Assembly (NCBI GenBank): GCA_041663185.1
Contig: JBAZQY010000001.1
Span: 233,087 to 297,086 of the forward strand
DNA: 64,000 nucleotides
Direction: 5' to 3'
Source of the DNA: Minisyncoccota bacterium
GTDB taxonomy: Bacteria > Patescibacteriota > Minisyncoccia > Phycocordibacterales > UBA9973
In this document: in pieces, positions 1-53,026 of the stretch
How the letters are laid out: each line of letters opens with the position of its first letter
Position numbering within the stretch: the first letter of the stretch is position 1
The notes under the pieces: model-generated
What the model was told of the DNA's origin: nothing
The model's database searches: none
What the model saw: the letters and a program-made list of their open reading frames with translations, nothing else
Made by a program: the position numbers and the translations under genes

Positions 1-11
1 TTGTATTCATT

Positions 12-914
12 ATGCTTCTCTTAATGCAAGCCAAAAAGATCGCTTCAAATATGTCCGGCGAAATTGGCCAGTCAATTACAAAAGGCATCGCCGCAGTCGG
101 AGGAATAGCCCTAGGTGGCGCAGCATTAGGTGCAGCAGCTCTTGGAAGGGGAACGGTTGGAGGATTTTTAAAAGGTTCTGCTACTGGAGATACTGCAGCC
201 CAGAGATATGCTAGGGGTGAATCAAAAAATAGATGGGATAGTATTAAGGGAAGAATTGGAAGTAGTTTGGGTGGAGTTCAAATACAACAAGGAGTTGGGC
301 GTATTTTAAATAGAGGAACAAATAGAATGGAAGAGTCAGCACATGGTAGACATCGTTTAGATGAAGTTTCTGGACAAATATATCGTGGAAGAAAGTGGTT
401 AGATTTAAATGGAACAGAAAGAGATGCTGTACGAGAAAGAATTAATCAAAATGAAGCAATACGTTTAATGGGACCACGATTTGGAACTAGAACATGGGCA
501 CAGCTTAGCGCAGCTGAAAGGGGTGATGTAAATGATTACATAACAGATCACGGAGTAAATGAAGCTCAAAATTTAGTTAGAAACGCACAAAGAAAAGATA
601 ATCCTGTTAATAAAGTACTACAGTCTTCGGCATTTGGTAGTTATGATATAAGAAATCTTGCTGAACTTATTGCGAATGAACATGATAGTGGTTTGAGTAA
701 GTTTGGTGTTGGTTTAATTTCAACAATAAGCAAAGGAATGCGTGGTGGGCTACAACAAGCAGGAATAAATTTTGGTAAAGGACAAGGAGAATTTATGAAA
801 GATCTTGGACATACTATCACGGAAGCACTCAAAGAAACTTCTGTTAAAGTTGATCTAACAAATCTAGGAAAAGAAGAAAAGGGCGAAGCTAAAAAAGGAA
901 GTGGCCATCATTAA
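12..914 (+). CDS. hypothetical protein with Gly/Ala-rich N-terminal segment; open to the window edge, so possibly N-terminally truncated
   Basis: 300-aa ORF with no upstream in-frame stop before position 1; first gene of the T4SS-like cluster on the + strand. Confidence 0.4.
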   Translation: MLLLMQAKKIASNMSGEIGQSITKGIAAVGGIALGGAALGAAALGRGTVGGFLKGSATGDTAAQRYARGESKNRWDSIKGRIGSSLGGVQIQQGVGRILNRGTNRMEESAHGRHRLDEVSGQIYRGRKWLDLNGTERDAVRERINQNEAIRLMGPRFGTRTWAQLSAAERGDVNDYITDHGVNEAQNLVRNAQRKDNPVNKVLQSSAFGSYDIRNLAELIANEHDSGLSKFGVGLISTISKGMRGGLQQAGINFGKGQGEFMKDLGHTITEALKETSVKVDLTNLGKEEKGEAKKGSGHH

Positions 915-932
915 ATAAGTAATAAATAAAAA

Positions 933-1886
933 ATGGATCAATTACAATTACAGCAAAAAATAGCAGAATATTTTGAAAAACTTCCTAAAGAGGTTCAGGG
1001 GATTTTTTCATCTATGACCTGGATGGAAACATTAAAAAATATTAGTACTAAATATAACCTAAATGAAAAACAGGTAGAAATTATCGGAACCGAAACAACA
1101 TTGGTTTTATTAGGTATAATTCACCTGGAGGAATATGTGAATATCTTGCATAAAGAATTAAGTTTAAATGAAGAAGTTTTTAACACAATGATTGATGAAA
1201 TTGATAATAATATTTTTAAAACAATCAAAAATCAACTTGTTGATACATATGAGGCAAATGTTTCATCTTTAGATAAAGAAAATGATAATGAAGAAAAATT
1301 AGATGAACGTTTTATAGGTTTACCTGAAGAAGTTAGGGAGGCAATAATTAAATCTAACTGGAAGAAAAAACTTTATGAAATTGCGTCAAAATATAAGCTC
1401 AATATCGAACAAATGGGGATTTTAGAAGATATGACAGTGAAAGTAATGACAAACGCAATCCACCCTGATAAATACGAAGGGGAATTAACTTCAAAAATAA
1501 CAATTTCCAAAGAAGACATTTCGAATCTTATAAAAGATGTAAACGAGAACATTTTAAGAAAGATCAGAAACATAATGGAAATAAAAACTGAAACAAAAAT
1601 TCCAGAAGTAAAAGATGAGGTTCCTCTGCCACCATATGCAATAAGTAGTAAGCAGGAAGTAGCAAGGAAGAAGGAAGAAGGGGATTCAATTCCTGTTACT
1701 CCAAAAATTGAGGCTCCAGTTGATAATTCTAAAAATATAATGAGTATTGTTGAGGAAAAATTAAAAAGTGCCACAATGAGTGATCATACAATTTCTGATT
1801 ATTCAGCTCCTAAAGTAAATAATACTCCTTCAAATAACCCAAACCCTTCAATTAAATCATCAGACCCTTATAGGGAAGCGTTTTAG
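933..1886 (+). CDS. hypothetical protein
   Basis: 317-aa ORF, charged and coiled-coil-like; no recognisable motif. Confidence 0.45.
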   Translation: MDQLQLQQKIAEYFEKLPKEVQGIFSSMTWMETLKNISTKYNLNEKQVEIIGTETTLVLLGIIHLEEYVNILHKELSLNEEVFNTMIDEIDNNIFKTIKNQLVDTYEANVSSLDKENDNEEKLDERFIGLPEEVREAIIKSNWKKKLYEIASKYKLNIEQMGILEDMTVKVMTNAIHPDKYEGELTSKITISKEDISNLIKDVNENILRKIRNIMEIKTETKIPEVKDEVPLPPYAISSKQEVARKKEEGDSIPVTPKIEAPVDNSKNIMSIVEEKLKSATMSDHTISDYSAPKVNNTPSNNPNPSIKSSDPYREAF

Positions 1887-2378
1887 ATTAGTAGAAAGTA
1901 GTATGTAGTAAGTAGTAAGGAAAATAAGTAACAGGTAGAAAGTAGTAAGTAGTATGGAAGAAAATAAAACTAAAATTAGTTCTTTTACTTCCCTGTTGGC
2001 ATGGCAGGAAGCGCACAAACTTACTCTTTTAATATATAAAAGATTACCAGAGTTTCCTGTTTATGAAAGATTTGGATTATGTGACCAATTACGTAGAGCT
2101 GTATCTTCAATATCCGCTAATATTGCCGAAGGTTTCGGAAGACACACATTAAAAGACAAGGTTCATTTTTATTATATTGCAAATGGTTCTCTTACTGAAA
2201 CGCAGAATCATCTTTTAGTTGCAAGAGATTTAAAATATTTAAATGATGAAAATTTTAAAAAAATAGCTGAACAAACGATTATCACTAGTAAACTTATCAA
2301 TGGTTTGATAAAATCAATTAATAGCAAGACGTAATTTTTCGTCCCTTACTACTTGCTACCTACTACCTACTACATTTA
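1887..2378 (+). repeat. palindromic hairpin element (GTAGTA-rich left arm, CTACTA-rich right arm) enclosing the four-helix-bundle ORF
   Basis: left arm gtagtatgtagtaagtagtaagg at about 1897-1919 is complementary to right arm cccttactacttgctacctactacctactac at about 2344-2375. Confidence 0.55.
1954..2334 (+). CDS. four-helix-bundle protein of the 23S rRNA intervening-sequence (IVS) protein / Avd-like family
   Basis: 126 aa; motifs LLAWQEAHKL, ANIAEGFGR and NHLLVARDLKYL typical of TIGR02436-type IVS proteins; sits in the loop of a long inverted repeat. Confidence 0.75.
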   Translation: MEENKTKISSFTSLLAWQEAHKLTLLIYKRLPEFPVYERFGLCDQLRRAVSSISANIAEGFGRHTLKDKVHFYYIANGSLTETQNHLLVARDLKYLNDENFKKIAEQTIITSKLINGLIKSINSKT

Positions 2379-2379
2379 C

Positions 2380-2799
2380 ATGCAATTCAAAGTCCCACAA
2401 TTTATTGATATCCAAGATAAACTATTTGGCCCTTTCACTTTTCATCAATTCGCATATCTTGTCGGCGGAGCTGGGATAATCTTCGTCATTTATAAACTAC
2501 TCCCATTGTGGATTGGTATTTTTTTAATGATTCCAATTGCTATTTTGTCCGCTTTACTTGTCTTTTATAAAATAAATGGCAAACCATTTATTTTCTACCT
2601 CCAAGCGGGTATTAGCTACCTTATTTCTAGTAAATTATATATTTGGAAACAAAGATTAGTAAAACCGGGCGATAAAACTAAAGAAGAAGAGGCTCCTACT
2701 CCTTCTTTGGTTTCGGTTCTTCCAATGACCTCCGAGAATAAGCTCAAAGACCTCGCTTGGAGCTTGGATGTACAAGATAAAGATGAAAGTAGCAAGTAG
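2380..2799 (+). CDS. PrgI-family membrane protein (conjugation/T4SS-associated)
   Basis: MQFKVPQFIDIQDKLFGPFTFHQFAYL followed by two TM helices; start moved to the internal Met because the annotated N-terminus is a translated repeat arm; immediately upstream of VirB4. Confidence 0.6.
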   Translation: MQFKVPQFIDIQDKLFGPFTFHQFAYLVGGAGIIFVIYKLLPLWIGIFLMIPIAILSALLVFYKINGKPFIFYLQAGISYLISSKLYIWKQRLVKPGDKTKEEEAPTPSLVSVLPMTSENKLKDLAWSLDVQDKDESSK

Positions 2800-2945
2800 A
2801 ATGTAGTAAGCAAAAAGAGGAAATAAAAAAATATGTTAATAGAATAAAAAATGGTAAAATATAACAAGTAGTAAACAGAAAGTGGTAAGCAAAAAGTATA
2901 AAATTAAATTCCCTTACTACCTACTACCTACTACATACTACACAT
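2800..2945 (+). repeat. second copy of the GTAGTA/CTACTA palindromic element (no ORF)
   Basis: gtagcaagtagaatgtagtaagcaaaaagagg ... cccttactacctactacctactacatactac. Confidence 0.55.
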
Positions 2946-3599
2946 ATGGCAATTAGTGCAAAAAGTTCTCAAGAATTTGTCCCAATTAAAGAAGTTCGAA
3001 ATGGAATCATTATTCTTAAAGATGGTGGTCTTCGGGCGATACTACTTGCTTCATCATTAAACCTTTCTCTTAAATCGGCCGACGAACAAACTGCCATAAT
3101 AAATGAATTTCAAAATTTTTTAAATGGTTTAGATTTTCCTATTCAAATTGCTATGCAATCTCGCCGACTAGATATCCGACCATATCTTTTGTCTCTAGAA
3201 GCCAGATTAAAAGACCAAGTTGAACCACTTCTTAAAATACAAACCAGAGAATACATAGACTTCATCCGATCATTCACCGAAGAAGTAAATATTATGACTA
3301 AGACTTTTTTTATTGTCGTTCCTTATAGTCCAACTGTTATAAAATCGGGAAATAAGATAGTCGAAGGTCTGCTTGGAGGAGGCACTCCTAAAAAGCAAGT
3401 GGAGGATACAAAGAAAGCCATTGACCTCGCCTCATTTGAAGAAAAGAGAACTCAACTTGATCAACGTGTCGGGGTTATTGCCGGAGGATTGGGGAGAATT
3501 GGTATTCGAACATCTGAACTTAAAACAGATCAGGTAGTTGAACTTTTTTATAAAACATTCAATCCAGGAGATATTAGTCAGGGAATTAAATTACAATAA
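2946..3599 (+). CDS. VirB4/TraC-family N-terminal domain protein (split VirB4, part 1)
   Basis: KEVRNGIIILKDGGLRAILLASSLNLSLKSADEQ resembles the N-terminal domain of Gram-positive-type VirB4 (PrgJ/TcpF-like); stop is 1 nt before the ATPase ORF. Confidence 0.6.
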   Translation: MAISAKSSQEFVPIKEVRNGIIILKDGGLRAILLASSLNLSLKSADEQTAIINEFQNFLNGLDFPIQIAMQSRRLDIRPYLLSLEARLKDQVEPLLKIQTREYIDFIRSFTEEVNIMTKTFFIVVPYSPTVIKSGNKIVEGLLGGGTPKKQVEDTKKAIDLASFEEKRTQLDQRVGVIAGGLGRIGIRTSELKTDQVVELFYKTFNPGDISQGIKLQ

Positions 3600-3600
3600 T

Positions 3601-5436
3601 ATGGGAATATTTTCATCACTATTTGGAAAAAAGGGAGATAGCGCTAAAAATAAAAGCGTCGTTATGCCGATTTTACCAAGTGAAATATATAAGGCGGCAA
3701 CACTTGAACTTCAAGATATTATCGCTCCTTCTGCTCTCCAAATAACTCCTAAGTCATTAAATTTGGGTGATAAAATTGCTAGAACATTCTTCGTTATTTC
3801 ATATCCAAGGTACCTCAGTGATAATTGGTTCTCACCAATCATCAACTTGGATAAGGTTTTTGATGTCTCTATTTTTGTTCATCCAATCGAGACTGCTGAA
3901 ATACTCCGAACTTTTCAGAAAAAAGTTGCAGAAGTTCAGAGTCAGATTTCTATTCGTGAATCAAAAGGCCTTGTTCGTGATCCAATGCTAGACACCGCCT
4001 ACAAAGATTTGGAAGATTTACGAGATAATTTGATGCAAGCTCAAGACAAAATGTTTGACGTTGGTATTTATATTACTGTCTATGCTGATAATGAAAATGA
4101 TTTATTTAAAATTGAAAATGAAATCAAATCTCTTCTTGATTCAAAATTAGTTTACTTAAAACCAGCCTTATTCCAACAAAATGAAGGATTCAAAAGTGTT
4201 ATTCCACTTGGTACGGACATTCTTGGTATTCATCAAAAGCTCAATACAGAGCCAATTTCAAGCGTCTTTCCATTCGTTTCTTTTGATTTGACGGAAGATA
4301 AGGGAATACTCTATGGAGTTAATCGTCATAATTCTAGTTTAATTCTTTTTGATAGATTTTCTTTACCAAATTATAATTCGATTACATTCGCAACTGCTGG
4401 AGCTGGTAAATCATATGCGACAAAACTTGAAATTATTCGTACTTTGATGTTTGATACTGAAGTTATCGTCATCGATCCTGAACGTGAATACGAATACTTG
4501 GCTGAAGCTATTGGTGGACGATATTTTAATATTGCTCTTTCCTCAGAGCACCATATTAATCCTTTCGATCTGCCGATTCCAACCGGCGAAGAGACAGGAG
4601 CGGATGTCCTACGAGCTAATACTATAAACCTAGTCGGATTATTCCGCATAATGCTTGGAGGTTTAACCCCAGAAGAAGATTCAATTATCGATAGTGCTAT
4701 TACTGAAACATACGCTCTAAAAGATATCACCGCCAATTCAAATTTTATGAATATCGAGCCACCAATGTTATCTGATTTTGAAGTGGTTTTGTCGGGCATG
4801 CAGGGGAGTGAATCACTAATGCAACGTTTGATTAAATATACCCATGGATCTTGGGCTTCATTCTTAAATCAACCATCAAATGTAGATATTAATCGCAAGT
4901 TTATTGTCTTTTCTGTTCGAGATATGGAAGATGAACTCAAACCAGTCGCAATGTATATTGTTACTCACTATATCTGGAATGCTGTTCGAAAAAATATAAA
5001 GAAAAGATTACTAGTAGTAGATGAGGCCTGGTGGATGATGAAATCAGAAGATACCGCTTCTTTCCTCTACTCAATTGCCAAGCGTGGAAGAAAATATTGG
5101 TTGGGACTTGCCACTATTACTCAAGATGTGGGAGATTTCATGAAAAGTGCTTATGGCATCCCAATCGTGACTAACTCGTCTATCCAATTACTTCTTAAAC
5201 AATCTCCAGCAACCATAGATGTTTTACAGAAAACATTCAACCTAACAGATGAGGAGAAATACTTATTACTCGAAGCCAATGTTGGAGAGGGAATATTCTT
5301 TGCCGGTTTAAAACACGTAGCCATCAAAACAATTGCTTCATATACAGAGGATCAAATTATTACTTCCGACCCTTCACAAATCTTAGCCATCAAAAAAGCC
5401 AAGGAAGAGTTATTATCTTCAAATAGCAGTAATTAG
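3601..5436 (+). CDS. VirB4-like T4SS ATPase (split VirB4, part 2)
   Basis: Walker A FATAGAGKSYA, Walker B LLVVDEAWWMM; ORF is open upstream to 3538 in another frame relative to part 1. Confidence 0.85.
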   Translation: MGIFSSLFGKKGDSAKNKSVVMPILPSEIYKAATLELQDIIAPSALQITPKSLNLGDKIARTFFVISYPRYLSDNWFSPIINLDKVFDVSIFVHPIETAEILRTFQKKVAEVQSQISIRESKGLVRDPMLDTAYKDLEDLRDNLMQAQDKMFDVGIYITVYADNENDLFKIENEIKSLLDSKLVYLKPALFQQNEGFKSVIPLGTDILGIHQKLNTEPISSVFPFVSFDLTEDKGILYGVNRHNSSLILFDRFSLPNYNSITFATAGAGKSYATKLEIIRTLMFDTEVIVIDPEREYEYLAEAIGGRYFNIALSSEHHINPFDLPIPTGEETGADVLRANTINLVGLFRIMLGGLTPEEDSIIDSAITETYALKDITANSNFMNIEPPMLSDFEVVLSGMQGSESLMQRLIKYTHGSWASFLNQPSNVDINRKFIVFSVRDMEDELKPVAMYIVTHYIWNAVRKNIKKRLLVVDEAWWMMKSEDTASFLYSIAKRGRKYWLGLATITQDVGDFMKSAYGIPIVTNSSIQLLLKQSPATIDVLQKTFNLTDEEKYLLLEANVGEGIFFAGLKHVAIKTIASYTEDQIITSDPSQILAIKKAKEELLSSNSSN

Positions 5437-5480
5437 GGGGCACTTATGAGCGGTTGTTGGGTGAGTAAAGTTATTATATA

Positions 5481-6485
5481 ATGTATAGAGTGAAATTAAT
5501 GAAAATAAAAATCTTCCTCGTTGGACTTTTTATCTTAGGAATAGTCAATATTCCATCTATTTCTTTTGCTGAAACACAAATTGAAATTCAGGAAGGAGAA
5601 GTGAACGTCGAAATAATTCCAAATAACCCAGAACCATATCAAGATATTAAAATCAACATCTCAAGTTATGCTACTGATTTAAACAAGGCCATTATCACTT
5701 GGGAAACATCAAAAGGGGTAGTTCTTTCTGGTATTGGTAAAACAAGTTATTCTTTTAAAACAGGAGGGATTGGATCATCTACTGTTTTTGATATTAATAT
5801 CACTCCTGTGGGTTCTATGAGTACAATTAATAAAATAATTGTAATTACTCCGTCTGAAGTTGAGATTATGTGGGAATCTGCTGATGGTTATACTCCTCCA
5901 TTTTATAAAGGAAAGTCCTTACCAATTAGTGGTAGTACTGTCCGAGCTGTCGCCATTCCAAATACAAATACTATAAAATCGGGTAGCGGGAGTATAACTT
6001 ATACTTGGAAGAGTGGAGATGAAACACAGTTAGGAGCTTCGGGTTATAATAAAAATTATTATGAATTTAAAAATAGTATGTTTGAAGATGTTAGTGAAGT
6101 AACAGTTATGGCTTCATCAGTCAGTGGAAATTATGGAGCCGAAAAGACTATTTCTATTCCTATGTATAAACCTAAAATAGTTTTTTATAAAAAATCCCCA
6201 ACCGAAGGAATTCTTTATAGTAAAGCTCTTGATAAAGAAATAGTAATGCCAGAAGACGAAATGACAATTGTCGCTGAACCATATTTCGTCTCTTTAAAAG
6301 GCAATGAGAATGATTTCTCTTACAGATGGCAAATAAATGGACAGGGAATAGAAACCCCTTCTCGTAAAACAGAACTAACTATTCGGCCAACTTCACGTGG
6401 TGGATATGCAACAATAAATATGATAATTGAAAATGCCAATGAATTATTCCAACAAGTTAGTAATTCATTAAAACTAATTTTATAA
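5481..6485 (+). CDS. secreted hypothetical protein (signal peptide)
   Basis: N-terminal hydrophobic signal ending in ISFAET; follows VirB4. Confidence 0.5.
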   Translation: MYRVKLMKIKIFLVGLFILGIVNIPSISFAETQIEIQEGEVNVEIIPNNPEPYQDIKINISSYATDLNKAIITWETSKGVVLSGIGKTSYSFKTGGIGSSTVFDINITPVGSMSTINKIIVITPSEVEIMWESADGYTPPFYKGKSLPISGSTVRAVAIPNTNTIKSGSGSITYTWKSGDETQLGASGYNKNYYEFKNSMFEDVSEVTVMASSVSGNYGAEKTISIPMYKPKIVFYKKSPTEGILYSKALDKEIVMPEDEMTIVAEPYFVSLKGNENDFSYRWQINGQGIETPSRKTELTIRPTSRGGYATINMIIENANELFQQVSNSLKLIL

Positions 6486-6486
6486 T

Positions 6487-8118
6487 ATGAAAAAATTCTC
6501 ATTATACACATTAATATCCGTAATAATTATTAACTTTTTCTTACCGTTTGGTATTAGTTTGAGTAATAATTTAGTCGAGAGAAAAATAGCAGAAGCGGCA
6601 AATGATTGTGTAATTTCTTCAGCTTTTTGGGACCCATCGGGGGAGCAAGCTGATAAATTCTATAGAGAAGGAGCGACAACAGCAAATATCAAAGTAAAAT
6701 CAAAAAATTGTGTCGGGGTAACAGGAATAAATTTAACTATTTACGAATCCGATGGTTGGGGTACCTTTAAGGATGATGTTTGGGATGATTCTGGATTGGA
6801 TGATAGAGAAATATCTATTCCATCTGATAATTTCGCAGTAAGATTATTATTGGGTGAAGAGGATTGCGAAACTAAGCTTACGGGTGGTTTTAAGTTTGAT
6901 TGCGATTTGTATTTTAAATTTAAAAGTGGAACGGATGTTATTTATAGTTCTGTTAATATTGGTTCAAATGGTGATACTGCAGGTAGTAGCGACCCGGGTT
7001 GGCTTTGGTATGGTTGTGATTACACAACCGGAGAACTTTGTGACCAAGATGGGCAATTTTTAGAAGTAATTGCCCTGGGAAACAATGATGACTCAGTAAA
7101 TTTTGATGCATTAGATCCCATTAATTTAGATAATTCATATAATTTATTGGCCCCTATTGGTGATTTTACAAAAGCACCTGATAATATGGGGGATTATTTC
7201 CAATTAATATTTGAACTAGCGATTGCTCTCTGTGCAGTTCTTGCTGTTGTAATGATTGTTATTGGTGGAATTCAATATATGGGGAATGAGTCCATTTTTG
7301 GAAAGACTGAAGCTAAAAGTAAAATAAAATATGCTATTGGTGGTCTATTAATTGCTCTTGGGGCTTATGCATTACTAAACACAATTAATCCAGATTTACT
7401 CGGTGGTAAGGGTGTAACAATAGATCAGGTTAGTGCTGAAATAGTTCGTGATCGTGCTTCAGATCCTGCTTTTATGCAAAATATTGATAGTTTTGACACT
7501 TCTAATATAACAATAACTCCTTCAGATTATAGTGATCCAACCTTTCTTGGATATATGGGGCACCAACAGGGTAGCGCAGGAGCTTCAGCAATCCTTTGGT
7601 CAGCTCATAAAGGATATACAAGTGTTCCAGCTGATAATCCATTCACAAAAAGTGATATCAATAGAAATATGAAAGGAAACTTTAATACAACAAGTGCTCA
7701 AAAAACAATAGGTACATCAGTACTTACCCCCGACAACTTTTTGAAATATTGGGCAACTAAAGTTGCGGCAGTTAAAAATGAAACTACCCCAGTAATTCCA
7801 TCAATGATAGAAAGCGAACTCGGAAAAGTCGCTAGTGAAACTGGAGTTGATATAGCAACACTAAAAACAATCTGCCGAATTGAATCAGCCGGAGGATGCA
7901 CCAATGATTCATCTATTACTACAGTTAATAACCTAGGATATGCTGGATTATTCCAATTAAGTAATAAGGTTTATCAAAAAAACACTGGTGTCTGGGAAGC
8001 ATACAAAAAAAGTGATGGGGTTCTCCTTGATGCTTACCACAATGCTTTTGTTGCGGCCAAATATTTCAGCGTAAACTTAAGTGGAATAAAGAAGAATTGG
8101 TCAAAAATAAATAATTAA
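6487..8118 (+). CDS. membrane protein with two central TM helices and a C-terminal lytic transglycosylase (SLT/VirB1-like) domain
   Basis: signal peptide; TM pair around LAIALCAVLAVVMIVIGG and IGGLLIALGAYALL; SLT motifs RIESAGG, GYAGLFQL and AYHNAFVAAKYF. Confidence 0.55.
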   Translation: MKKFSLYTLISVIIINFFLPFGISLSNNLVERKIAEAANDCVISSAFWDPSGEQADKFYREGATTANIKVKSKNCVGVTGINLTIYESDGWGTFKDDVWDDSGLDDREISIPSDNFAVRLLLGEEDCETKLTGGFKFDCDLYFKFKSGTDVIYSSVNIGSNGDTAGSSDPGWLWYGCDYTTGELCDQDGQFLEVIALGNNDDSVNFDALDPINLDNSYNLLAPIGDFTKAPDNMGDYFQLIFELAIALCAVLAVVMIVIGGIQYMGNESIFGKTEAKSKIKYAIGGLLIALGAYALLNTINPDLLGGKGVTIDQVSAEIVRDRASDPAFMQNIDSFDTSNITITPSDYSDPTFLGYMGHQQGSAGASAILWSAHKGYTSVPADNPFTKSDINRNMKGNFNTTSAQKTIGTSVLTPDNFLKYWATKVAAVKNETTPVIPSMIESELGKVASETGVDIATLKTICRIESAGGCTNDSSITTVNNLGYAGLFQLSNKVYQKNTGVWEAYKKSDGVLLDAYHNAFVAAKYFSVNLSGIKKNWSKINN

Positions 8119-8122
8119 AATC

Positions 8123-9613
8123 ATGCCTAAAAAAACAATTATCATTTTCATAACAGTATTTGTAATCATCGGATTAATCGTCTTGGGAATTTATTTATTT
8201 TCAAAAAAAGACAAGGATGGCACTGATAATGGAACAACTCCTTGGTATCAAAATTTTAATCCTTTCGGAACAGGGACCGAAATACCAAGTGGTAATGAAA
8301 ATAATGGAATAGGAAATAATAATCAGGGTCAAACAGGAAGCCTGACAGACACAGGTTCTTCTAGATTTTACCAAGTAACCGATTTTGCAGTTGCTGGAGC
8401 TACTTTCTTAGAAGATACAAGGCCAGTAATAGTTCCCGAGGGGCAAGAGAATCAGCCAAAAGAAATCAAGACCTTAATTTCAGTCGATACGAAAGAGGGG
8501 CGAAAAGAAATTCAAAATATTTTAAATGAAACATTATTACCCAAAACTCCACTTGTTGCCGATGGAAACTTTGGGAAATTAACAACCAAAGCCATTGAAG
8601 ATTTTCAAAAATTAAAAAATTTACCAATCACCGGTAAAATTGACGCGGAAACAGCTCCATATTTTACAAAGACAATAACTGATTTAACGAATGCTCCAAA
8701 ATACGAACAGGCTCCATCTTTAAGATATGTAGAAAGAAAGAACGGACACATGTATAAAATGTTTCTCGATACTAAAGAGAAAACCAAAATTTCTAATTCA
8801 ACAATCCCTGGTATTTATGAAGCATTTTTTGACACAACAGCCCAAACAGTTATTTATCGATATTTATCTGAAGATAAAAAGATTAATAGTTTCATGGCAA
8901 CCCTAGGTGCACCAAAAGGGGAATTTTTGCCTCAGAATATTTCTGATTTGAGTGTTTCGCACGATAAAACAAAATTTTTCTATCTCGTAGAAAATGGTGG
9001 AGGAGTTACTGGAACGACTGGATTGTTTGGTAATACAAAAAGGGAAGTAGCATTCAATTCTCCTTTTACAGAATGGCTAAGTCAATGGACTTCTGGGCAA
9101 AAAGTATTTTTGACAACAAAAGCCTCATATGGAGTTAGTGGTAGTATTTTTATGCTAGATACTACAAAAAAAACACTCTCAAAAGTATTTGGCGGGGTTA
9201 TGGGTCTTACTACACTAGTAAACCCTAACGGGTCTCTTATTTTGTACAGTTATTTTTCAAAAACAGGTCCACAACTAGGAATTTTTGATATCGCTCAACA
9301 CTCCACCAGAAATTTGGATATTTATAGTTTGCCTGAAAAATGTGTCTGGGCTAATGATAATGTAAGTATTTATTGTGCTGTGCCTAATGTTATTGTCGGG
9401 AATCAATATCCAGATTATTGGTATCAAGGATTAATTTCTTTTGATGATTATTTTATAAAAATAAATACCGAGACCGGAAATAAAACAACAATTGCAAACT
9501 CCATAAATGAAACAGCTATAGATGGAACGCATTTGTTCTTGGATCGCACAGAAGAAAATTTGTTTTTAATAAACAAAAAAGATTCAACCTTGTGGAGCCT
9601 AAATATTAAATAA
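8123..9613 (+). CDS. membrane-anchored protein with a peptidoglycan-binding domain
   Basis: N-terminal TM; PG_binding_1-like LVADGNFGKLTTKAIEDFQKLKNLPITGKIDAETAPYF. Confidence 0.55.
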   Translation: MPKKTIIIFITVFVIIGLIVLGIYLFSKKDKDGTDNGTTPWYQNFNPFGTGTEIPSGNENNGIGNNNQGQTGSLTDTGSSRFYQVTDFAVAGATFLEDTRPVIVPEGQENQPKEIKTLISVDTKEGRKEIQNILNETLLPKTPLVADGNFGKLTTKAIEDFQKLKNLPITGKIDAETAPYFTKTITDLTNAPKYEQAPSLRYVERKNGHMYKMFLDTKEKTKISNSTIPGIYEAFFDTTAQTVIYRYLSEDKKINSFMATLGAPKGEFLPQNISDLSVSHDKTKFFYLVENGGGVTGTTGLFGNTKREVAFNSPFTEWLSQWTSGQKVFLTTKASYGVSGSIFMLDTTKKTLSKVFGGVMGLTTLVNPNGSLILYSYFSKTGPQLGIFDIAQHSTRNLDIYSLPEKCVWANDNVSIYCAVPNVIVGNQYPDYWYQGLISFDDYFIKINTETGNKTTIANSINETAIDGTHLFLDRTEENLFLINKKDSTLWSLNIK

Positions 9614-9618
9614 GAATA

Positions 9619-9650
9619 AAAAAATCCAGGTCTAGCCTGGATTTTTTTAT
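9619..9650. terminator. bidirectional rho-independent terminator
   Basis: aaaaaatccaggtctagcctggattttttt hairpin between convergent genes. Confidence 0.6.
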
Positions 9651-9651
9651 T

Positions 9652-10119
9652 CTATATAGAATTATCAACATATTTTATAACAACCCGACGATTCGGACCA
9701 TAACCCTCTGATTCCGTTTTTATATCTTTTGCTCCTTCCAAGAACATATGGATGATTCTTCTTTCGTAGGCAGGCATTGGATCAACTTCAATGTTGCTTT
9801 TAAAATATCTAGCCCGTTCGGCCATCATATGGGCGATATTTTTTAAATTCTCAAAACGCTTTTTTTGATAACCATTAACATCAATAAATATATTGGGGCC
9901 TTTTTCTTCTTCTTTTAATCCTTTTTCTATAATTTTTTGAACAAGATGATTCAAAGAGCGAAGAGTCTCGCCATCTCTTCCAATAATAAACCCCGAATCC
10001 GGAGTTTCGATCATACACCAAGTCATACCTCCCTCATCGGAGAATTCACACCGAGAAATAGCACATGAGGTGTGTTTAAAAATCTGTTCTATTGTCTCTT
10101 TTATCTTATCTTTATACAT
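9652..10119 (-). CDS. jag: Jag/KhpB RNA-binding protein (KH + R3H domains)
   Basis: R3H signature ERRIIHMFL and GYGPNRRVVIKY; lies downstream of yidC as in the canonical oriC locus. Confidence 0.75.
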   Translation of the reverse strand: MYKDKIKETIEQIFKHTSCAISRCEFSDEGGMTWCMIETPDSGFIIGRDGETLRSLNHLVQKIIEKGLKEEEKGPNIFIDVNGYQKKRFENLKNIAHMMAERARYFKSNIEVDPMPAYERRIIHMFLEGAKDIKTESEGYGPNRRVVIKYVDNSI

Positions 10120-10124
10120 AAAAA

Positions 10125-10886
10125 TTAATTTGGGGTGTGTGTCAATTTACGACGGATATACCATTCTTGAACGATAGTAAATATATTACTCACAATCCAA
10201 TATAATGCAACTGCGGCTGATATTTTCCAAGCAATAAAAGCAATAAAAACCGGTAAAATATATTTAACATTCATTTGCATGCTTTCAGAGAGTTGTTCTT
10301 GAAACGTCTTTGGGGCTGGGACTTCTGTTGTTCCTTTTACAATTTCAACCTTTGGTTTAACTGGTGATGATAAATAACCTTGAATAAACTGAGTCACCCC
10401 AGCAAAAATACCGAGGAAAAGGCTCTTACTTCCCATTTCTATTAAACCAAGGAAATTGGTGTGCAAACTATCTGGTGTTTGGATAAATGAGTATATCAGA
10501 CTTGGATCAACCGCAAATGGTTTATAAAAAACATAATACAACGCAAAAATAACCGGGAGTTGAAGAATAACGACCAAACAACCAGAAAATGGATTTGTCC
10601 CATATTTTTTATATAATTCAAAGGTTTTTTTAGCTTGTTCTTCTTTATTGGGGAAATCTTTTTTAATCTGCTTAAGCTCGGGTTCCATTTTTTTCATTAA
10701 TATTTGGCTTTTAATGGACTTGCGGGTAAGGGGAGCAAGTATTAATTTTACGATTATTGTCACTAAAATAATAGCAAAACCAACATCACCAAAAGTGATA
10801 TTGTCTATTATAAATATAAGAATATTGTATATGGGTTGGTAAAAGACACTATTCCACAGAGCTTGCATTTCCCTATTGTAGCACAA
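10125..10886 (-). CDS. yidC: membrane protein insertase YidC (short form)
   Basis: multi-TM with PFSGCLVVILQLPVIFALYYVF; position in the rnpA-yidD-yidC-jag order. Confidence 0.85.
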   Translation of the reverse strand: MCYNREMQALWNSVFYQPIYNILIFIIDNITFGDVGFAIILVTIIVKLILAPLTRKSIKSQILMKKMEPELKQIKKDFPNKEEQAKKTFELYKKYGTNPFSGCLVVILQLPVIFALYYVFYKPFAVDPSLIYSFIQTPDSLHTNFLGLIEMGSKSLFLGIFAGVTQFIQGYLSSPVKPKVEIVKGTTEVPAPKTFQEQLSESMQMNVKYILPVFIAFIAWKISAAVALYWIVSNIFTIVQEWYIRRKLTHTPN

Positions 10887-10984
10887 GGAAGCAAAAAGTA
10901 GAAAGTAGTATGTAGAAAGATTGGTTTGAAATATTTTATATTATGTTTTTGTTTTTTCCCTTACTACCTACTACTTACTACCTA
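10887..10984 (+). repeat. third copy of the GTAGTA/CTACTA palindromic element
   Basis: aagcaaaaagtagaaagtagtatgtagaaag ... cccttactacctactacttactacctattac between yidC and yidD. Confidence 0.55.
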
Positions 10985-11191
10985 TTACTTAATTGGGTCG
11001 TAATGATTTTTTTGCCAAGGATGACAACGAGAGATCCGAACAACACCCCGCCAAAGGCCAGTCCAGACTCCATATTTTAAAATGGCTTGTTTAGTATATT
11101 CTGAGCAGGTTGGCAAAAAGACACAAGATGAGTGAGATCGAAGTGGTATTTTTTGATAAATATTTATTAACCAAAGTAATATTTTTTTCAC
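10985..11191 (-). CDS. yidD: membrane protein insertion efficiency factor YidD
   Basis: FLPTCSEYT ... RCHPW signature. Confidence 0.8.
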   Translation of the reverse strand: MKKILLWLINIYQKIPLRSHSSCVFLPTCSEYTKQAILKYGVWTGLWRGVVRISRCHPWQKNHYDPIK

Positions 11192-11208: not shown

Positions 11209-11532
11209 TTATTTAATAAAGTGAGTTTTTTCTAAAATAAAAACTATATCTTCTTTAATTTCTTTAGCGCCAACAAAAAGAGCTTGTTTTTTATAAAAAA
11301 ATATTCCACTTCCACCTAAAATAGGAATGGAGCGTAAGACATTGTAACCAATTCTTCTGAATTTATTTCTCTTAACAGCGTTTTTAAAAATACCCTTAGG
11401 GGTCACAAAAGCAAAACTCGGTCCACCGCTGTTTTTAAAAGAAAAAGAAAAAAGGCTAGTTGAAAAAGTTTTTCCCTCTTTTAATAATAGTTGGAAATCT
11501 TTTTTTGTCAGCCTCTTTTTTTTTGAAAGCAT
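11209..11532 (-). CDS. rnpA: RNase P protein component
   Basis: KNAVKRNKFRR motif; located between rpmH and yidD. Confidence 0.8.
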   Translation of the reverse strand: MLSKKKRLTKKDFQLLLKEGKTFSTSLFSFSFKNSGGPSFAFVTPKGIFKNAVKRNKFRRIGYNVLRSIPILGGSGIFFYKKQALFVGAKEIKEDIVFILEKTHFIK

Positions 11533-11801: not shown

Positions 11802-13169
11802 ATGAATAACACAAGAGAGCTTTGGAACCGATGTTTAGGAGAAATTGAACTAAGTATTTCAAAGGCTAATTTTACTACTTGGTTTAAAAATACTTCAATC
11901 ATTAAAGAAGATGCTGGGGTAATATATGTCGGTGTCCCAAATGAATTCGTTAAAGATTGGCTGTATAACAAATTTCATAAACTTATCCTCAAAACCCTGA
12001 TTAGTAATGAGGAAAACATCAGAAATGTTGAATATATAATACACAAACAGGAACAAAAATATGAACAAGCTATTAAAAACAGTGACATTGTTAATATAAA
12101 ATCTCCAATAAGCAATAACAAAGAACTTCCGTTGAATGATTTATATATTAATAAAGAAGACAACTTAAATCCAAAATATAATTTTAATTCTTTTATTGTT
12201 GGTCCTTTTAATGAGTTGGCTTACGCTGTAGCACAAGCCATAATTGCAAACCCTGGACAAAACTACAACCCATTTTTTGTTTATGGTGGAACTGGTTTGG
12301 GTAAAACCCATATGATTGAAGCAATAGGGAACACAATAAAAATCAAACATCCAGGTAAAAAAGTTTATTATGTTAGTTTGGAAAAATTTGCAATTGATTA
12401 TATTAATTCAATTCAAAACAAAAACCCAAACTCCTTTAAAGAAAAGTATCGTAAATATGATGTTATTATTATGGATGATATTCAATTTATTTCCGGTAAA
12501 GACAAAACCCAAGAAGAATTATTCCATCTTTTTAATACCTTATATGAAAACAATAAACAAATAATCTTCTCTTCTGATAAGCACCCAAACTTTATCCAGG
12601 GATTAGAAGAAAGACTCCAGTCGCGCTTTGCTTCTGGAATGACTGTTCAGATAGTTGAACCAGATTATGAATCTCGTGTCGCAATTATAAAAGCAAAATT
12701 CGAATCGAGTAGTTGTATTATGGAACCAGAAGCTATTTCCTATTTAGCTGAAGCTTTAAATGGAAATATCCGTGAGCTAGAAGGAAGTTTAAATACCATC
12801 ATCTGTCAATCACAACTAAAAAATAAGTCTTTAACCCTACTAGAAATCAAAACCCTTATTAAAAACAATATCCGACCCAAAAAGACTGTGGCGATTAAAG
12901 ACATTGTCCAAATTGTCGCTGATCAATATGGAATTCCCGAGGAGGTCATCTATGAGAAAACAAGAAGAAAAGAAATTGTCCGAGCTCGTCAGGTTGCAAT
13001 GTATTTATTACGAGAAGATTTTAATGTTTCCTATCCACTTATAGGTAAAAAGTTGGGGGACAGAGATCATACAACTGTTATTCACTCACACCTAAAAATA
13101 AAAAGTGATTTAAAAACTGACCCATCATTATTACAAGAGATTGAAAAAATAAGAATTATGTTTAAGTAG
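11802..13169 (+). CDS. dnaA: chromosomal replication initiator DnaA
   Basis: Walker A GGTGLGKTH; domain IV ARQVAMYLLRE ... DHTTVIHS. Confidence 0.95.
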   Translation: MNNTRELWNRCLGEIELSISKANFTTWFKNTSIIKEDAGVIYVGVPNEFVKDWLYNKFHKLILKTLISNEENIRNVEYIIHKQEQKYEQAIKNSDIVNIKSPISNNKELPLNDLYINKEDNLNPKYNFNSFIVGPFNELAYAVAQAIIANPGQNYNPFFVYGGTGLGKTHMIEAIGNTIKIKHPGKKVYYVSLEKFAIDYINSIQNKNPNSFKEKYRKYDVIIMDDIQFISGKDKTQEELFHLFNTLYENNKQIIFSSDKHPNFIQGLEERLQSRFASGMTVQIVEPDYESRVAIIKAKFESSSCIMEPEAISYLAEALNGNIRELEGSLNTIICQSQLKNKSLTLLEIKTLIKNNIRPKKTVAIKDIVQIVADQYGIPEEVIYEKTRRKEIVRARQVAMYLLREDFNVSYPLIGKKLGDRDHTTVIHSHLKIKSDLKTDPSLLQEIEKIRIMFK

Positions 13170-37244: not shown

Positions 37245-38189
37245 CTAAACGAATAATTTTTGATGAACATTACAAAAATGTGTACTACGTCCATTTATAA
37301 CTTTTCTCATTATAACACCAGAACAAGCATGTTTACCACATTTTGTATTTTTCTTCTGATAAACGTTATGTTTATTTTGAAAATTACCTTTTTCTCCATG
37401 GATATTCCGATAATCAGACATCGAATCACCACCGAAATCTATTCCTTTAGTAAGGACCTTTTTCATTTCTTTATACAATTTTAATAATTTTTCCGGAGGT
37501 ATTTTTATTGAATTTGATTCTGGATGAATACTAGAAGACCAAAGCATTTCATCTGAATAAATGTTTCCGATTCCAGCAATAACTGTCTGGTCCATTAAGA
37601 TAGTTTTTATCTTTCCGCTTGTTTTTAAAAATAGACGATCTTTAAACTTTTCAAAAGTAAAAATTTTTTCTAATGGCTCGGGACCAATATTTTTCAAGTG
37701 CAAAGTATTTTCTAAATCATGAGTTGGTATAATGGTAACCTTCCCGAATTTACGAGAATCACAAAAAGCCAAATGTTTAACACCCGAGAAAGTAAAAACA
37801 ACATGAATAAATCGATTACATGGATCTGATAGAGATTTCCTTTCATTTTTATCTGGAACCCAGCTTACTACTTTCTGCTTACTACCTACTACTTGTTTGT
37901 ATTCGCCAAAAAGAAGATGCCCAGTCATTTTTAGATGAATGAGAATTGTATAACCACCAGAAATATGAATTAGAATATTTTTTGCTCGTCTTTCTACTCT
38001 TAGAACTTTTTTCCCGATAACTTTTTTCTTAAATTTTTTGAAAAATACATCATTTTTAATTGTGTCTTGAAATTGTTTAACTTTTTGATTTTTTTTCGAA
38101 AGATCAGTCCAGATATCAACAAAAACAAGCCCTGGTAGGACTTTTTGCAAACCATTTACTGTTGTGGTGACTTCTGGGAGTTCAGGCAT
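37245..38189 (-). CDS. mutM: formamidopyrimidine-DNA glycosylase (Fpg/MutM)
   Basis: MPELPEV N-terminus; C-terminal zinc finger CGKHACSGV ... HFCNVHQ; carries an in-frame repeat-like segment at about 37864-37895. Confidence 0.9.
   Translation of the reverse strand: MPELPEVTTTVNGLQKVLPGLVFVDIWTDLSKKNQKVKQFQDTIKNDVFFKKFKKKVIGKKVLRVERRAKNILIHISGGYTILIHLKMTGHLLFGEYKQVVGSKQKVVSWVPDKNERKSLSDPCNRFIHVVFTFSGVKHLAFCDSRKFGKVTIIPTHDLENTLHLKNIGPEPLEKIFTFEKFKDRLFLKTSGKIKTILMDQTVIAGIGNIYSDEMLWSSSIHPESNSIKIPPEKLLKLYKEMKKVLTKGIDFGGDSMSDYRNIHGEKGNFQNKHNVYQKKNTKCGKHACSGVIMRKVINGRSTHFCNVHQKLFV
37864..37895 (+). repeat. CTACTA-repeat segment (cttactactttctgcttactacctactacttg) embedded in frame in fpg
   Basis: exact cttactacctactac match to the right arm of the hairpin elements; encodes an extra roughly 20-aa loop compared with E. 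coli Fpg. Confidence 0.5.
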
Positions 38190-38247
38190 GAAAAAATAAT
38201 TAGGAATTAATAATTAAGAATTACGAATTGAGAAAATAAATATAAAA

Positions 38248-38826
38248 TTAACGCTTGCCGAGGATTTGCAAAGCTTCTTTTATTCGTGCATTAGTACCGA
38301 TTGTTGTAGAGGGGACTTGTTTGAGAGCATCTCTAGCTTCATTTTGAGAGTAACCGAGAGATTTAAGAGCTTCAATAATATCACTTTCATCGCGCAATAA
38401 TCCTGGAGTGTCATCATCATTTCTATATTCTTGTAATTTATCTCGAAGCTCAACAATTATTTTTTCAGCAGTTTTTTTGCCAATGCCGGAAACTTTATTT
38501 AAATAACTTGTATCACCGGTAGCGATAGCTTTTTTTAGTGTATCTATTGGGGCGACGGTCAAAATTGATAGAGCTGATCTTGGTCCAATACCCGAAACAT
38601 CAAGCAGAAGCTCAAAAAAAGACAACTCGTTAATTGTTTTGAATCCATATAAGTCGATAGAATTTTCTCGGACAGCGGTATGCACCCAAAAAGAAGAATG
38701 TTCTCCAAGAATAGATGATGCTAATGTTTCGGTTGTAATATATAACTTATATCCAACACCCGAAACATCAACCACCAAAAACTTGTTATCAATATGGGCG
38801 ATAATTCCTTCTATTTTTGCAATCAT
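38248..38826 (-). CDS. ruvA: Holliday junction branch-migration protein RuvA
   Basis: MIAKIEGII N-terminus; HhH region GIGPRSALSIL. Confidence 0.9.
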   Translation of the reverse strand: MIAKIEGIIAHIDNKFLVVDVSGVGYKLYITTETLASSILGEHSSFWVHTAVRENSIDLYGFKTINELSFFELLLDVSGIGPRSALSILTVAPIDTLKKAIATGDTSYLNKVSGIGKKTAEKIIVELRDKLQEYRNDDDTPGLLRDESDIIEALKSLGYSQNEARDALKQVPSTTIGTNARIKEALQILGKR

Positions 38827-38958
38827 GTATAAATAATAGCAAATATTGCTCTTTTGGGCTATTTCTGGTAATATTCTTGTATTAAGTTTTGCTGGTGTCT
38901 CGGCAGGATTTGAACCAAATTCTTAATTCGTAATTATTAATTCTTAATTAAATATAAT

Positions 38959-48028: not shown

Positions 48029-48382
48029 ATGGACTACATATCATACGAAGAATTTAAAAAGATGGATATCCGAGTTGGAACAATCAAGGAAGTTGAAATA
48101 ATTCCAGAGACCGACAAACTTTTACGTTGCCAGGTAGATTTTAATGAAATTAATGAAGAAGGAAATAAAAAGTTAAGACAAATTGTTTCAGGGATAAAAG
48201 AATATTATCCCGACCCACAGGTCTTAGTAGGGAAACAGGTACTATATATTGTAAATCTTGAACCAAGAAAAATTAAGGGATATGAAAGTAATGGAATGCT
48301 AATGGCGGTGGATGGAATCGATGGCAAGCCAGTTTTTCTTATTCCTGAAGTCGAAGTTAATCCCGGAAGTAGGGTGAGGTAA
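48029..48382 (+). CDS. tRNA-binding domain protein (CsaA/Trbp111-like)
   Basis: MDIRVGTIKEV ... IVSGI ... SNGMLMA OB-fold pattern. Confidence 0.7.
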   Translation: MDYISYEEFKKMDIRVGTIKEVEIIPETDKLLRCQVDFNEINEEGNKKLRQIVSGIKEYYPDPQVLVGKQVLYIVNLEPRKIKGYESNGMLMAVDGIDGKPVFLIPEVEVNPGSRVR

Positions 48383-48445
48383 TTAAGAATTAAAAATTAA
48401 GAATTAAAAAATGTCGAACCAATTAATTACTAGAACCTAATTCAA

Positions 48446-52067: not shown

Positions 52068-52856
52068 ATGAAAATAAAAATTTTATACGAAGATAAAAAT
52101 ATTTTAGTTATCGATAAACCAGCGGGTATTTCAGTGCATGGAGATGGTAAAACCAAAGAAGAAACAATTTCTGATTGGGTGCTTTCAAATTACCCATCAA
52201 TAAAAAATGTCGGAGAGCCAATTAAATTAAAAATTAAGAATGAGGAATTAAGAATTAATCGGCCGGGAATTGTCCACCGCTTAGATAAAGAAACTTCGGG
52301 AATTTTGATTATTGCTAAAAATCAAAAAACTTTTCTTTTTTTGAAGGAGCAATTTATGAACCATAAAGTTAAAAAAGTTTACCGAGCATTTGTTTATGGT
52401 TATGTTTCTGATCCCAAGGCTTCACTTCTTACCGGTGGAAGGGGAGTAATAAATGTTCCAATAGGTCGCTCATCAAAAGATATCAGGGCATATACTGCTG
52501 GGCGTGGAGCGAGAGCCCCACTTCGTGAGGCTGTGACAGAATATATTATTTTAAATAAGTTTACTGATTCGAGCGATGAAAATGAAAAGAAAAAAATTGA
52601 ACATCAGTATTCTTATATTGAAGCATATCCAAAAACTGGGCGAACTCATCAGATTAGAGTTCATATGCGTTATATTAATCACCCAGTAGTTTCTGACCCG
52701 ATTTATCGTGGAATAAAAGAGAAATCTTTAGGCATGAAGCGCCTCGCGCTTCATGCCTATTCGGCAACTTTTACTCTTCCAAATGGAAAAGTGAAAACTG
52801 TAGAATCTCCACTTCCGGCTGATTTCAAAAAGGTGTTAAAAACATTTTTGAATTAG
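52068..52856 (+). CDS. RluA-family pseudouridine synthase
   Basis: catalytic HRLDKETSGILIIAKN. Confidence 0.85.
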   Translation: MKIKILYEDKNILVIDKPAGISVHGDGKTKEETISDWVLSNYPSIKNVGEPIKLKIKNEELRINRPGIVHRLDKETSGILIIAKNQKTFLFLKEQFMNHKVKKVYRAFVYGYVSDPKASLLTGGRGVINVPIGRSSKDIRAYTAGRGARAPLREAVTEYIILNKFTDSSDENEKKKIEHQYSYIEAYPKTGRTHQIRVHMRYINHPVVSDPIYRGIKEKSLGMKRLALHAYSATFTLPNGKVKTVESPLPADFKKVLKTFLN

Positions 52857-52927
52857 GTTCTAGTGGCTAGTTTCTAGGTTCTAGCAAAATGCTAATGAAT
52901 TCATATACAGGAACAATTTTTTTCATA

Positions 52928-52957
52928 TTGACAAAATAGGGTTGTTTGTGATATAAT
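52928..52957 (+). promoter_or_regulatory. sigma70-like promoter of the DGR target gene
   Basis: ttgaca - 18 nt - tataat. Confidence 0.5.
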
Positions 52958-53026
52958 ACAAGAAGGTAAAGAGTCTGCCTTAAAAATGGCTCAAATATTT
53001 AATTTTGTACTTTTAAAAAATTTAAA

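Follow-up and report, generated by a model that had tools for sequence, protein, structure and literature searches.

We describe a gene cassette at positions 1887–2378 of a 64,000-nucleotide stretch of DNA from a Minisyncoccota bacterium (hereafter the window), in which a small gene of the IVP family (intervening sequence proteins of 23S rRNA) lies between inverted arrays of tandem heptamers. It is probable, in our judgement, that the element is a mobile gene cassette of the intervening sequence (IVS) type, made up of a four-helix-bundle IVP gene and its two heptamer arms, and inserted in a type IV secretion system (T4SS)-like operon of Paceibacteria/Nomurabacteria of the candidate phyla radiation (CPR). 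The evidence that the cassette is mobile and family-wide is strong; that its arms are processed by RNase III, and what the protein does, we infer.

The cassette fills the operon spacer 1887–2379 exactly, from the stop codon of the upstream gene (1884–1886) to the ATG of prgI at 2380. Its 5' arm (1890..1954, + strand) is an array of ∼9 AGTAGTA/GTAGTAA units (Tandem Repeats Finder: period 7, 9.0 copies), which begins 4 nt past the upstream stop codon and extends into the ATG of the IVP gene (1954..2334, + strand; 126 aa). Within this array, 1891–1920 is the segment that pairs with the 3' arm, and the same units form another block at 1935–1952. The 3' arm (2344..2373, + strand), which reads CCTTACTAC TTGCTAC CTACTAC CTACTAC, is the reverse complement of the 5' arm and is also periodic (2347–2373, TACTACC, period 7, 3.9 copies by the same program); it has a single G and no start triplets, and ends 6 nt ahead of the prgI ATG. 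The initial annotation of this DNA had noticed reverse-complementary arms around the gene, and an inverted-repeat search found them as 1891–1920 and 2344–2373, 30 nt each and complementary at 26 of 30 positions (87%). It had not recognized that the arms consist of heptamers in tandem, (GTAGTAA)n on one side and (TTACTAC)n on the other, that gene-less copies of the hairpin exist, or that the layout is family-wide.

RNA folding, which that annotation had proposed as a check, agreed with it: the arms are base-paired in both the minimum free energy and the centroid folds of 1880–2385 (z = −3.4), and none of 100 shuffles folds as well. We also used a flank-pairing score, defined as the best local pairing that the 100 nt preceding a gene make with the 100 nt that follow it, with 289 neighbouring open reading frames (ORFs) from the surveyed loci described below as controls. 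The window cassette scores 40, against a 99th percentile of 30 among the controls. The motif GTAGTAAG occurs 13 times in the window where 1.05 occurrences are expected, and 0 of 100 shuffles reach 13. An AT-rich genome (GC of the window, 34%) with several heptamer arrays could be imagined to produce simple-sequence arrays inverted around a small ORF by accident or slippage. These shuffle and control statistics exclude such an artefact, the layout is kept in orthologs and reappears, built of other heptamers, across phyla, and we give the idea practically no weight.

The cargo protein is a member of the IVP family, as first proposed from the sequence. It matches PF05635 (23S_rRNA_IVP; E 3.7e-34, 117.6 bits, cutoff 33.8) and TIGR02436 (E 2.3e-33, 114.6 bits, cutoff 24), and carries the R-x3-S-x3-N-x2-E motif. 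The nearest solved relative by sequence is XCC0516 (PDB 2GSC, E 6e-16). An AlphaFold model built with 51 homologs is a four-helix bundle (pLDDT 95), for which 2GSC is also the best match in the PDB (TM 0.87–0.96, rmsd 0.6 Å), followed by BT_0352 (2RLD) and then by Avd of diversity-generating retroelements (DGRs; 4DWL, 8UBE; TM ∼0.75–0.9, identity 9–11%). Among seven orthologs of the same arm type (type A, below), dN/dS is 0.05–0.21, with dS up to ∼2. By these ratios the IVP gene is under purifying selection and functional, unlike the S23p ORF of Coxiella, which is decaying and probably untranslated (PMC4990558).

The mobility of the cassette was evident from its relatives. We collected loci by a VirB4 alignment scan, taking one genome per species, and obtained 80 Paceibacteria/Nomurabacteria loci (L numbers) with the same synteny and VirB4 proteins 77–93% identical. 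Where close IVP homologs occur (73–94% identical), placement and arm type are identical: upstream gene, arm, IVP, arm, prgI, a gene-less hairpin (hairpin B), traC-like gene and virB4. In most of the 80 loci the spacer ahead of prgI is just 1–25 nt and has no IVP, and the IVP is missing from ∼85% of the syntenic operons. An IVP gene lies upstream of prgI only in the type-A loci (the window, L001–L003, L165, L167 and L173; arm heptamer GTAGTAA) and in eight others, whose proteins match PF05635 with E 1e-28 to 1e-38. These are L085, L094, L155 and L159 (type B; AATTACG/GTAATTA), L133, L157 and L160 (type C; TAGGCAC/TAGCTNA), and L163 (type D, found also in L137 at a different site; AAAGTTA(T)). 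Identity between the four IVP types is 18–41%, as compared to 78–93% for the VirB4 proteins of their hosts, and type B is present in both host clades. Heptamer sequence goes with IVP subtype rather than with host or insertion site.

The closest neighbours of the window in the VirB4 tree are L086 and L085. L086 lacks an IVP, and its 44-nt spacer contains a GTAGGAAGTAGGAAGT remnant; L085 has a type-B cassette at the prgI spacer. Both are nested next to the window, and they indicate a loss (L086) and a replacement (L085) inside the type-A clade. The swaps have exact junctions, with the ...DPYRE(A/E)F stop codon, itself conserved, on one side and ATGCAATTCAAAGT on the other. At an unrelated site in L170, after a lexA-like gene, an IVP of 66% identity (a protein attributed to a Doudnabacteria metagenome-assembled genome) has GTAGCAA/GTAGTAA arms. 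Presence and absence, loss, replacement, exact junctions and the different site in L170 together argue strongly that gene and arms behave as one mobile unit, which is gained and lost, and exchanged for others, at one fixed spacer of the operon. Its spread to this site in further species would most simply have occurred by homologous recombination through the conserved flanking genes. In L126, a small GIY-YIG endonuclease gene (84 aa; 5539–5793) occupies the spacer ahead of prgI instead of an IVP gene, and it looks as if small selfish genes in general land in this spacer. Another GIY-YIG gene lies near the IVP cassette of L170 (5099–5350).

Next, we surveyed 72 metagenomic IVP loci, whose proteins are 36–56% identical to that of the window and whose GC content is 30–64%. 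The median flank-pairing score was 29 for IVP genes and 14 for the controls (Mann-Whitney p = 1e-18); 67% of the IVP genes exceeded the 95th percentile of the controls and 46% the 99th. Strongly periodic flanks had a period of 7 in 36/39 cases upstream and 25/33 downstream, the remainder having mostly a period of 8, as compared to periodicity in 3 of 149 control windows. The heptamer varies from locus to locus, and similarity of the arms in k-mers follows IVP identity (Mantel r = 0.27; none of 999 permutations as high). Cultured organisms share this layout: IVP genes with heptamers of their own lie on plasmid pNPUN01 in Nostoc punctiforme (CAGGAGT), after an integrase gene in Calothrix (GGGTGTA), after an Fe-S cluster accessory gene in Riemerella (AAGGTTC) and between cmr2 and cmr3 in Picosynechococcus (GGAGATA). 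An IVP homolog of Azospirillum lipoferum AZO_p2, for which no gene is annotated, is located within a 23S rRNA gene (2529 bits on the LSU model), and the arms of this IVS, CAGAGGACGGATGACAGAGGACGG and CCGTCCTCTGTCTTCTGTCATCCGTC, carry the heptamers CAGAGGA/CGGATGA. We take these comparisons, made at the level of sequence, to show that the heptamer-bracketed cassette is a family-wide, cross-phylum trait of PF05635 genes, common also to ORF-bearing 23S rRNA IVSs.

The likeness to rRNA IVSs is in fact closer than the initial annotation had claimed. In Coxiella the IVS has a 28-bp stem, tandem GACAGAT heptamers stand ahead of the S23p ORF, and RNase III cuts within the stem (PMC4990558). The ORF-bearing IVSs of Coxiella, Leptospira and Azospirillum lipoferum share with the window cassette a PF05635 cargo, a terminal stem of ∼28–30 bp and tandem-heptamer arms, of which the G-rich one is 5' of the ORF; heptamer copy number varies among strains and species. 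The window cassette accordingly has the terminal inverted-repeat stem of a 23S rRNA IVS, and the IVP ORF in its loop with tandem heptamers upstream. It differs in its host transcript, which is the spacer of an mRNA operon and not helix 25 or 45 of 23S rRNA. It differs from the Coxiella IVS also in that its ORF is intact (dN/dS 0.05–0.2) and not decaying. Excision by RNase III has been shown for rRNA IVSs, and for the window cassette it would follow by analogy.

The suggestion that such an element had escaped from an rRNA context was not borne out. By Rfam, 0 of 40 sampled metagenomic IVP loci lie in rRNA; in the window Rfam found tRNAs only, hence no rRNA around the cassette, which has protein genes on both sides. 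Across the window and 43 other loci, Rfam placed no RNA family at any arm and found rRNA in the Azospirillum control only. As IVP cassettes occur in cas, T4SS and tRNA clusters and none of the 40 loci is in rRNA, the rRNA IVSs are a minority location of a general cassette, and rRNA is only one of its many host transcripts. In L005 (region 3577–4491) the IVP gene lies between two tRNA genes, and in L036 (region 4004–4497) directly upstream of one; these sites are stable-RNA operons other than rRNA. IVP ORFs have been reported in some CPR rRNA insertions (PMC11270868). IVP genes within cas operons have been interpreted as CRISPR-associated (PMC3936711, PMC10910872). In cas, T4SS or other operons they are probably hitch-hiking cassettes and not functional partners, which matters for annotation through guilt by association.

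This bears on whether the IVP serves the operon as an accessory or regulatory T4SS subunit, or serves as a second Avd for the DGR of the window. Within the operon the gene has the orientation of its neighbours and is tightly packed with them, it is retained under purifying selection in the type-A clade, its fold is Avd-like, and the DGR that had been noted ∼50 kb away is real and lies ∼52 kb off, with variable repeat (VR), template repeat (TR), Avd-like gene and reverse transcriptase (RT). A T4SS subunit is rejected on the distribution among syntenic loci, where the IVP is mostly missing and where IVP types unrelated to one another, and in one case a GIY-YIG gene, occupy the same site; IVP cassettes are found, moreover, in unrelated operons (cas, tRNA clusters, rRNA). 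A second Avd is ruled out as well, since the DGR has its own adjacent Avd-like gene (NF033474, E 1e-14), which shows no pairwise similarity to the window IVP (BLASTP E = 23). The IVP itself, although it had been expected to score against IVS/Avd profiles, does so against the IVS profiles and falls below the Avd model NF033474 (19.5 bits, cutoff 80), with the nearest RT 52 kb away. It shares with bAvd (PDB 4DWL/8UBE) the four-helix-bundle fold and the superfamily, and is set apart from it by the low identity and by the lack of an adjacent RT, TR or VR; of the paralogy to Avd that was initially proposed, the relation at the level of superfamily and fold thus stands and a closer one does not. Either role for the IVP seems to us very improbable.

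The two arms were found to have a fixed polarity. The upstream arm has more G than C in 36/37 non-redundant loci (p = 5.5e-10), stop triplets occur in all three frames in 21 of 39 5' arms and 7 of 39 3' arms, and 32 of 39 downstream arms are free of ATG, GTG and TTG. A G-rich, stop-rich arm thus comes first and a C-rich, start-free arm second. Given the 7-nt period, any triplet is presented in all three frames within three units, and since the two strands of an inverted repeat read alike, the polarity is the same whichever way transcription runs. Such a polarity would suit an element sitting between cistrons. Pairing is clearly maintained, to judge from the replacement of whole arms between types by different yet complementary sequence.

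Excision by RNase III has been demonstrated for the IVSs of Leptospira too, and a similar course may be envisaged here. In the operon transcript the arms would form a ∼30-bp stem that host RNase III would cut, as in the Coxiella and Leptospira IVSs, freeing the IVP mRNA and parting the flanking cistrons. The 5' arm would halt read-through translation in all frames and give the cargo a purine-rich, Shine-Dalgarno-like sequence, and the 3' arm would give prgI a short, start-free leader devoid of a Shine-Dalgarno sequence, like the near-leaderless prgI of insert-free relatives. In most of these relatives the empty spacer has an extended −10-like motif, TGnTAnAAT, 6–8 nt ahead of the prgI ATG (e.g. 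tttgTGaTAcAATataaatATG). The motif stands at this distance, with no Shine-Dalgarno sequence, at both prgI and the traC-like gene in L088, L090, L095, L096, L098, L102 and many other loci, which suggests that in this CPR lineage the mRNAs of the two genes may be leaderless or nearly so. Long stems without a T-run terminator also occur between the cistrons of polycistronic transcripts in the RNase III hairpins of the phage T7 early region, which differ in having neither a gene in the loop nor tandem heptamers. A terminator scan found no intrinsic terminator (short GC-rich stem and T-run) at the arms of the window cassette; ATTTACATG comes after the 3' arm.

Two gene-less hairpins of the same GTAGTAA/TTACTAC heptamers are present in the window. 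Hairpin B (2785..2941, + strand; arms ∼2789–2810 and 2913–2941, inner array 2866–2902) lies in the prgI/traC-like spacer, and its loop of ∼100 nt has no ORF and carries TGGTAAAAT, an extended −10-like motif (TGnTAnAAT) kept in relatives. Its position is kept in L001–L003. At L001 it consists of a different heptamer (AATTACT/AGTAATT) and is still an inverted repeat, so that here the structure rather than the sequence is kept. Hairpin C (10895..10991, − strand) lies between the minus-strand genes rnpA (11209–11532) and yidC (10125–10886), both assigned by Pfam matches, directly upstream of the yidC start; its loop is ∼40 nt with no ORF. The minus-strand RNA of hairpin C folds with −25.9 kcal/mol (z = −4.8) and the plus-strand RNA with −21.3 kcal/mol (z = −2.0). 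In L085, a gene-less type-B hairpin (12765–12935) has in its loop a terminator-like stem and then a T-run (aaaaaataccatgacactgtcatggtattttttat).

Such features might be read as transcriptional or translational punctuation of the operon, the hairpins being insulators with a promoter in the loop and the IVP an incidental passenger. The TGnTAnAAT motif is conserved in the hairpin B loops of the window, L001, L002 and L003; in L094, TATGGTATAAT stands after the IVP stop codon and before the 3' arm; and the terminator-like stem of L085 and the stop-rich and start-free arms would fit as well. So would the TAACTGA heptamers of Beggiatoa and cyanobacteria, which are described as lying immediately upstream of start codons (PMC4679880). 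However, most relatives have no hairpin at these spacers, a scan of 1700–3100 for sigma-70 promoters and terminators showed no enrichment, and arms and gene travel together to new sites (L170). The IVP is also the cargo far beyond chance, since 46–67% of IVP genes, against 1–5% of other genes, exceed the pairing thresholds. We therefore regard punctuation with a passenger as unlikely, and favour the mobile IVS-type cassette.

Several observations weigh against the mobile IVS-type cassette, or against parts of it. The IVP gene on plasmid pPg_01 of Pseudanabaena galeata (L175; 1390–1970, between cas6 and cas4) has direct and not inverted arrays, (AAAGCTA) ∼15 times upstream and (AAAGCCA) ∼10 times downstream. 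Folding of hairpin B is weak (z = −1.1). Heptamer arrays are not exclusive to IVP genes, given that ruvA (38248–38826, − strand), a housekeeping gene, is bracketed by two inverted arrays (38198–38234 and 38918–38949) of a second heptamer family, AATTAAG/AATTACG (reverse complement AATTCTT). The junctions with the stop codon and the ATG show no target-site duplication, the cassette has no transposase and no recombinase was found. Cleavage of the window arms by RNase III is proposed by analogy with the characterised rRNA IVSs, and the RNase III signature E[RKTS]LE[FWY][LVIM]GD was absent from all six frames of the 64-kb window, which is uninformative for the whole genome. Arm mismatches show no bias between sense-strand G-U (45) and A-C (40; p = 0.66), and within type A, where the sequences are too similar, one pair in 25 is compensatory; mismatches and covariation do not separate selection on RNA from selection on DNA. 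The initial annotation had spoken of a mobile RNA-level insertion. Mobility is upheld by presence and absence, loss and replacement, and of RNA-mediated movement there is no indication.

The cassette may also be compared with known classes of mobile elements. Of the features of a transposon or miniature inverted-repeat transposable element (MITE), inverted arms are present, and neither a target-site duplication nor a transposase inside is seen, though an enzyme might act in trans. It is not an integron cassette, as repeats are on both sides of the ORF and no integrase is in the operon. Nor is it a member of the REPIN-RAYT systems (REP, repetitive extragenic palindromic), because its cargo is PF05635 and not an HUH enzyme; the layout alone is analogous. 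As in REP/REPIN-RAYT, a protein gene lies within inverted cognate repeats, gene-less hairpins are dispersed between genes, and the repeat type co-varies with the protein subtype. The RAYT, however, is an HUH Y1 transposase and the IVP a four-helix bundle with no known catalytic activity, and REPs are single palindromes whereas the IVP arms are tandem heptamer arrays.

This analogy leads to an explanation that we put forward tentatively, as clearly less probable than the one adopted above. The heptamer hairpins would be the dispersed repeats of a two-component system, and the IVP, presumed to bind nucleic acid as a pentamer, would act on them in trans as a dedicated partner in binding, processing or propagation, its gene nesting inside a hairpin of its own cognate heptamers. 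The gene-less hairpins at 2785–2941 and 10895–10991 agree with it, as does the co-variation of heptamer type with IVP type across hosts. For a given locus, arrays of its own heptamer type are enriched ∼12-fold on the rest of its contig as compared to unrelated contigs (0.108 against 0.0093 per kb); this enrichment could, however, reflect genome-specific repeat families unrelated to the IVP. L085 has, besides its cassette, two gene-less type-B hairpins and L159 extra arrays of its own type-B heptamer. Avd, the structural homolog of the IVP, is a pentameric scaffold that binds nucleic acid and RT, and it binds RNA within the DGR ribonucleoprotein (PDB 8UBE-type matches). On the other side, the AATTAAG family (arrays at 38195–38234, 38918–38949, 48381–48410 and 52225–52258) has no IVP with matching arms within the 64-kb window, though type-B IVPs carry such heptamers in L085, L094, L155 and L159. 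The heptamer of hairpin B in L001 differs from that of the L001 IVP arms. The IVP also has no recognisable nuclease or recombinase fold, and its binding or activity would be argued by analogy.

Dispersed heptamers known from other bacteria have much in common with these arrays. In Xanthomonas campestris, GGGAATC forms 186 arrays with 70 convergent pairs in operon spacers, among them gltD-gltB, groES-groEL, atpA-atpG, atpD-atpC and holC-pepA (PMC4692102 supplement). For XCC0516, the IVP protein whose crystal structure was solved, one of these arrays overlaps the start codon, next to bccP (table of PMC4692102 supplement), and this too agrees with a two-component system. The Xanthomonas GGGAATC, the Anabaena/Nostoc GGGGA(C/T)T (STRR-like) and the TAACTGA repeats are, like those described here, tandem 7-nt units in operon spacers, of taxon-specific sequence, often in convergent pairs with loops of 20–70 nt, and their arrays often end just 5' of start codons with no Shine-Dalgarno sequence. 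They have been treated as orphan repeats (G-quadruplexes, post-transcriptional signals; PMC4692102, PMC4679880), and neither paper mentions IVP, S23 or 23S. Arrays of the window type, unlike the repeats as published, lie on both sides of an IVP gene, with whose subtype they vary. We found no paper that describes non-rRNA IVP genes as heptamer-bracketed cassettes, or that ties the IVP to heptamer families, in a search of freely accessible literature.

Since about 1990–93 the origin of ORF-bearing rRNA IVSs has been debated. That origin, the function of the PF05635/TIGR02436 family, which is very large, and the intergenic heptamer repeats of cyanobacteria, Xanthomonas, Beggiatoa and CPR bacteria are three orphans that could be one phenomenon. 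A mobile-element origin of IVSs has long been suspected (discussion in PMC4990558). It is conceivable, though we would not call it likely, that IVPs are the missing trans-acting partners of the heptamer families (STRR-type GGGGA(C/T)T, GGGAATC, TAACTGA, GTAGTAA and AATTAAG), built on a non-enzymatic, Avd-like scaffold, with gene-less hairpins colonising operon spacers and rRNA IVSs being copies that landed in rRNA. If true, REPIN-RAYT would have a widespread analogue among two-component repeat systems, with the classical rRNA IVSs included.

The genes on either side of the cassette belong to a T4SS-like cluster, in agreement with the first description of the locus. The upstream gene (933..1886, + strand; 317 aa) ends in ...DPYREAF*, its stop codon adjoining the 5' arm, and its C-terminal DPYR motif and stop are kept beside cassettes in relatives. 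The downstream gene, prgI (VirB3-like; 2380..2799, + strand; PF12666, E 1.2e-9), starts at ATG 2380 and not at TTG 2353, as gene calls at four homologous loci use the equivalent ATG; ATGCAATTCAAAGT is conserved here across all loci compared. The N-terminus 'LPTTYY' arises from the TTG-started ORF at 2353 and is simply the translated right arm, as had been noticed before. The cluster in 1–10000 contains TrbL-like, prgI, traC-like, virB4 and peptidoglycan-binding/lytic-transglycosylase genes, with a pilin-like match in one relative. This 'conjugation-like' cluster is chromosomal. Its VirB4 is 77–93% identical over ∼80 Paceibacteria/Nomurabacteria species, and it looks less like a mobile conjugative element than like core equipment of the lineage.

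Inserts of another kind were seen in the same operon spacers. In L104 IG1, L147 IG1, L122 IG2 and L095 IG2 these are GC-rich palindromes of ∼100–150 nt, CCTCCTCCCCT...AGGGGAGGAGG, a different, MITE-like hairpin family in otherwise AT-rich genomes.

Within the window, a GTAGTAA-type array at 37864–37892 (CTTACTAC... on the + strand) lies inside the coding region of an fpg/mutM-like gene (37245–38189, − strand). Because the match to the Pfam N-terminal domain covers 151 residues for a 117-position model, an in-frame insertion is suggested. The DGR comprises a target gene (53027–53665) with its VR (53537–53654), a TR (53965–54082) that is 81% identical to the VR, the Avd-like gene (54101–54442, − strand), divergent from the RT gene, and the RT gene itself (54494–55513, + strand), which overlaps the start of rplS. 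Upstream of the target gene, a TAGGTTC heptamer array lies within 52854–52960, right after a pseudouridine synthase stop codon; after it comes a promoter close to the consensus (TTGACA, 17 nt, TGTGATATAAT).

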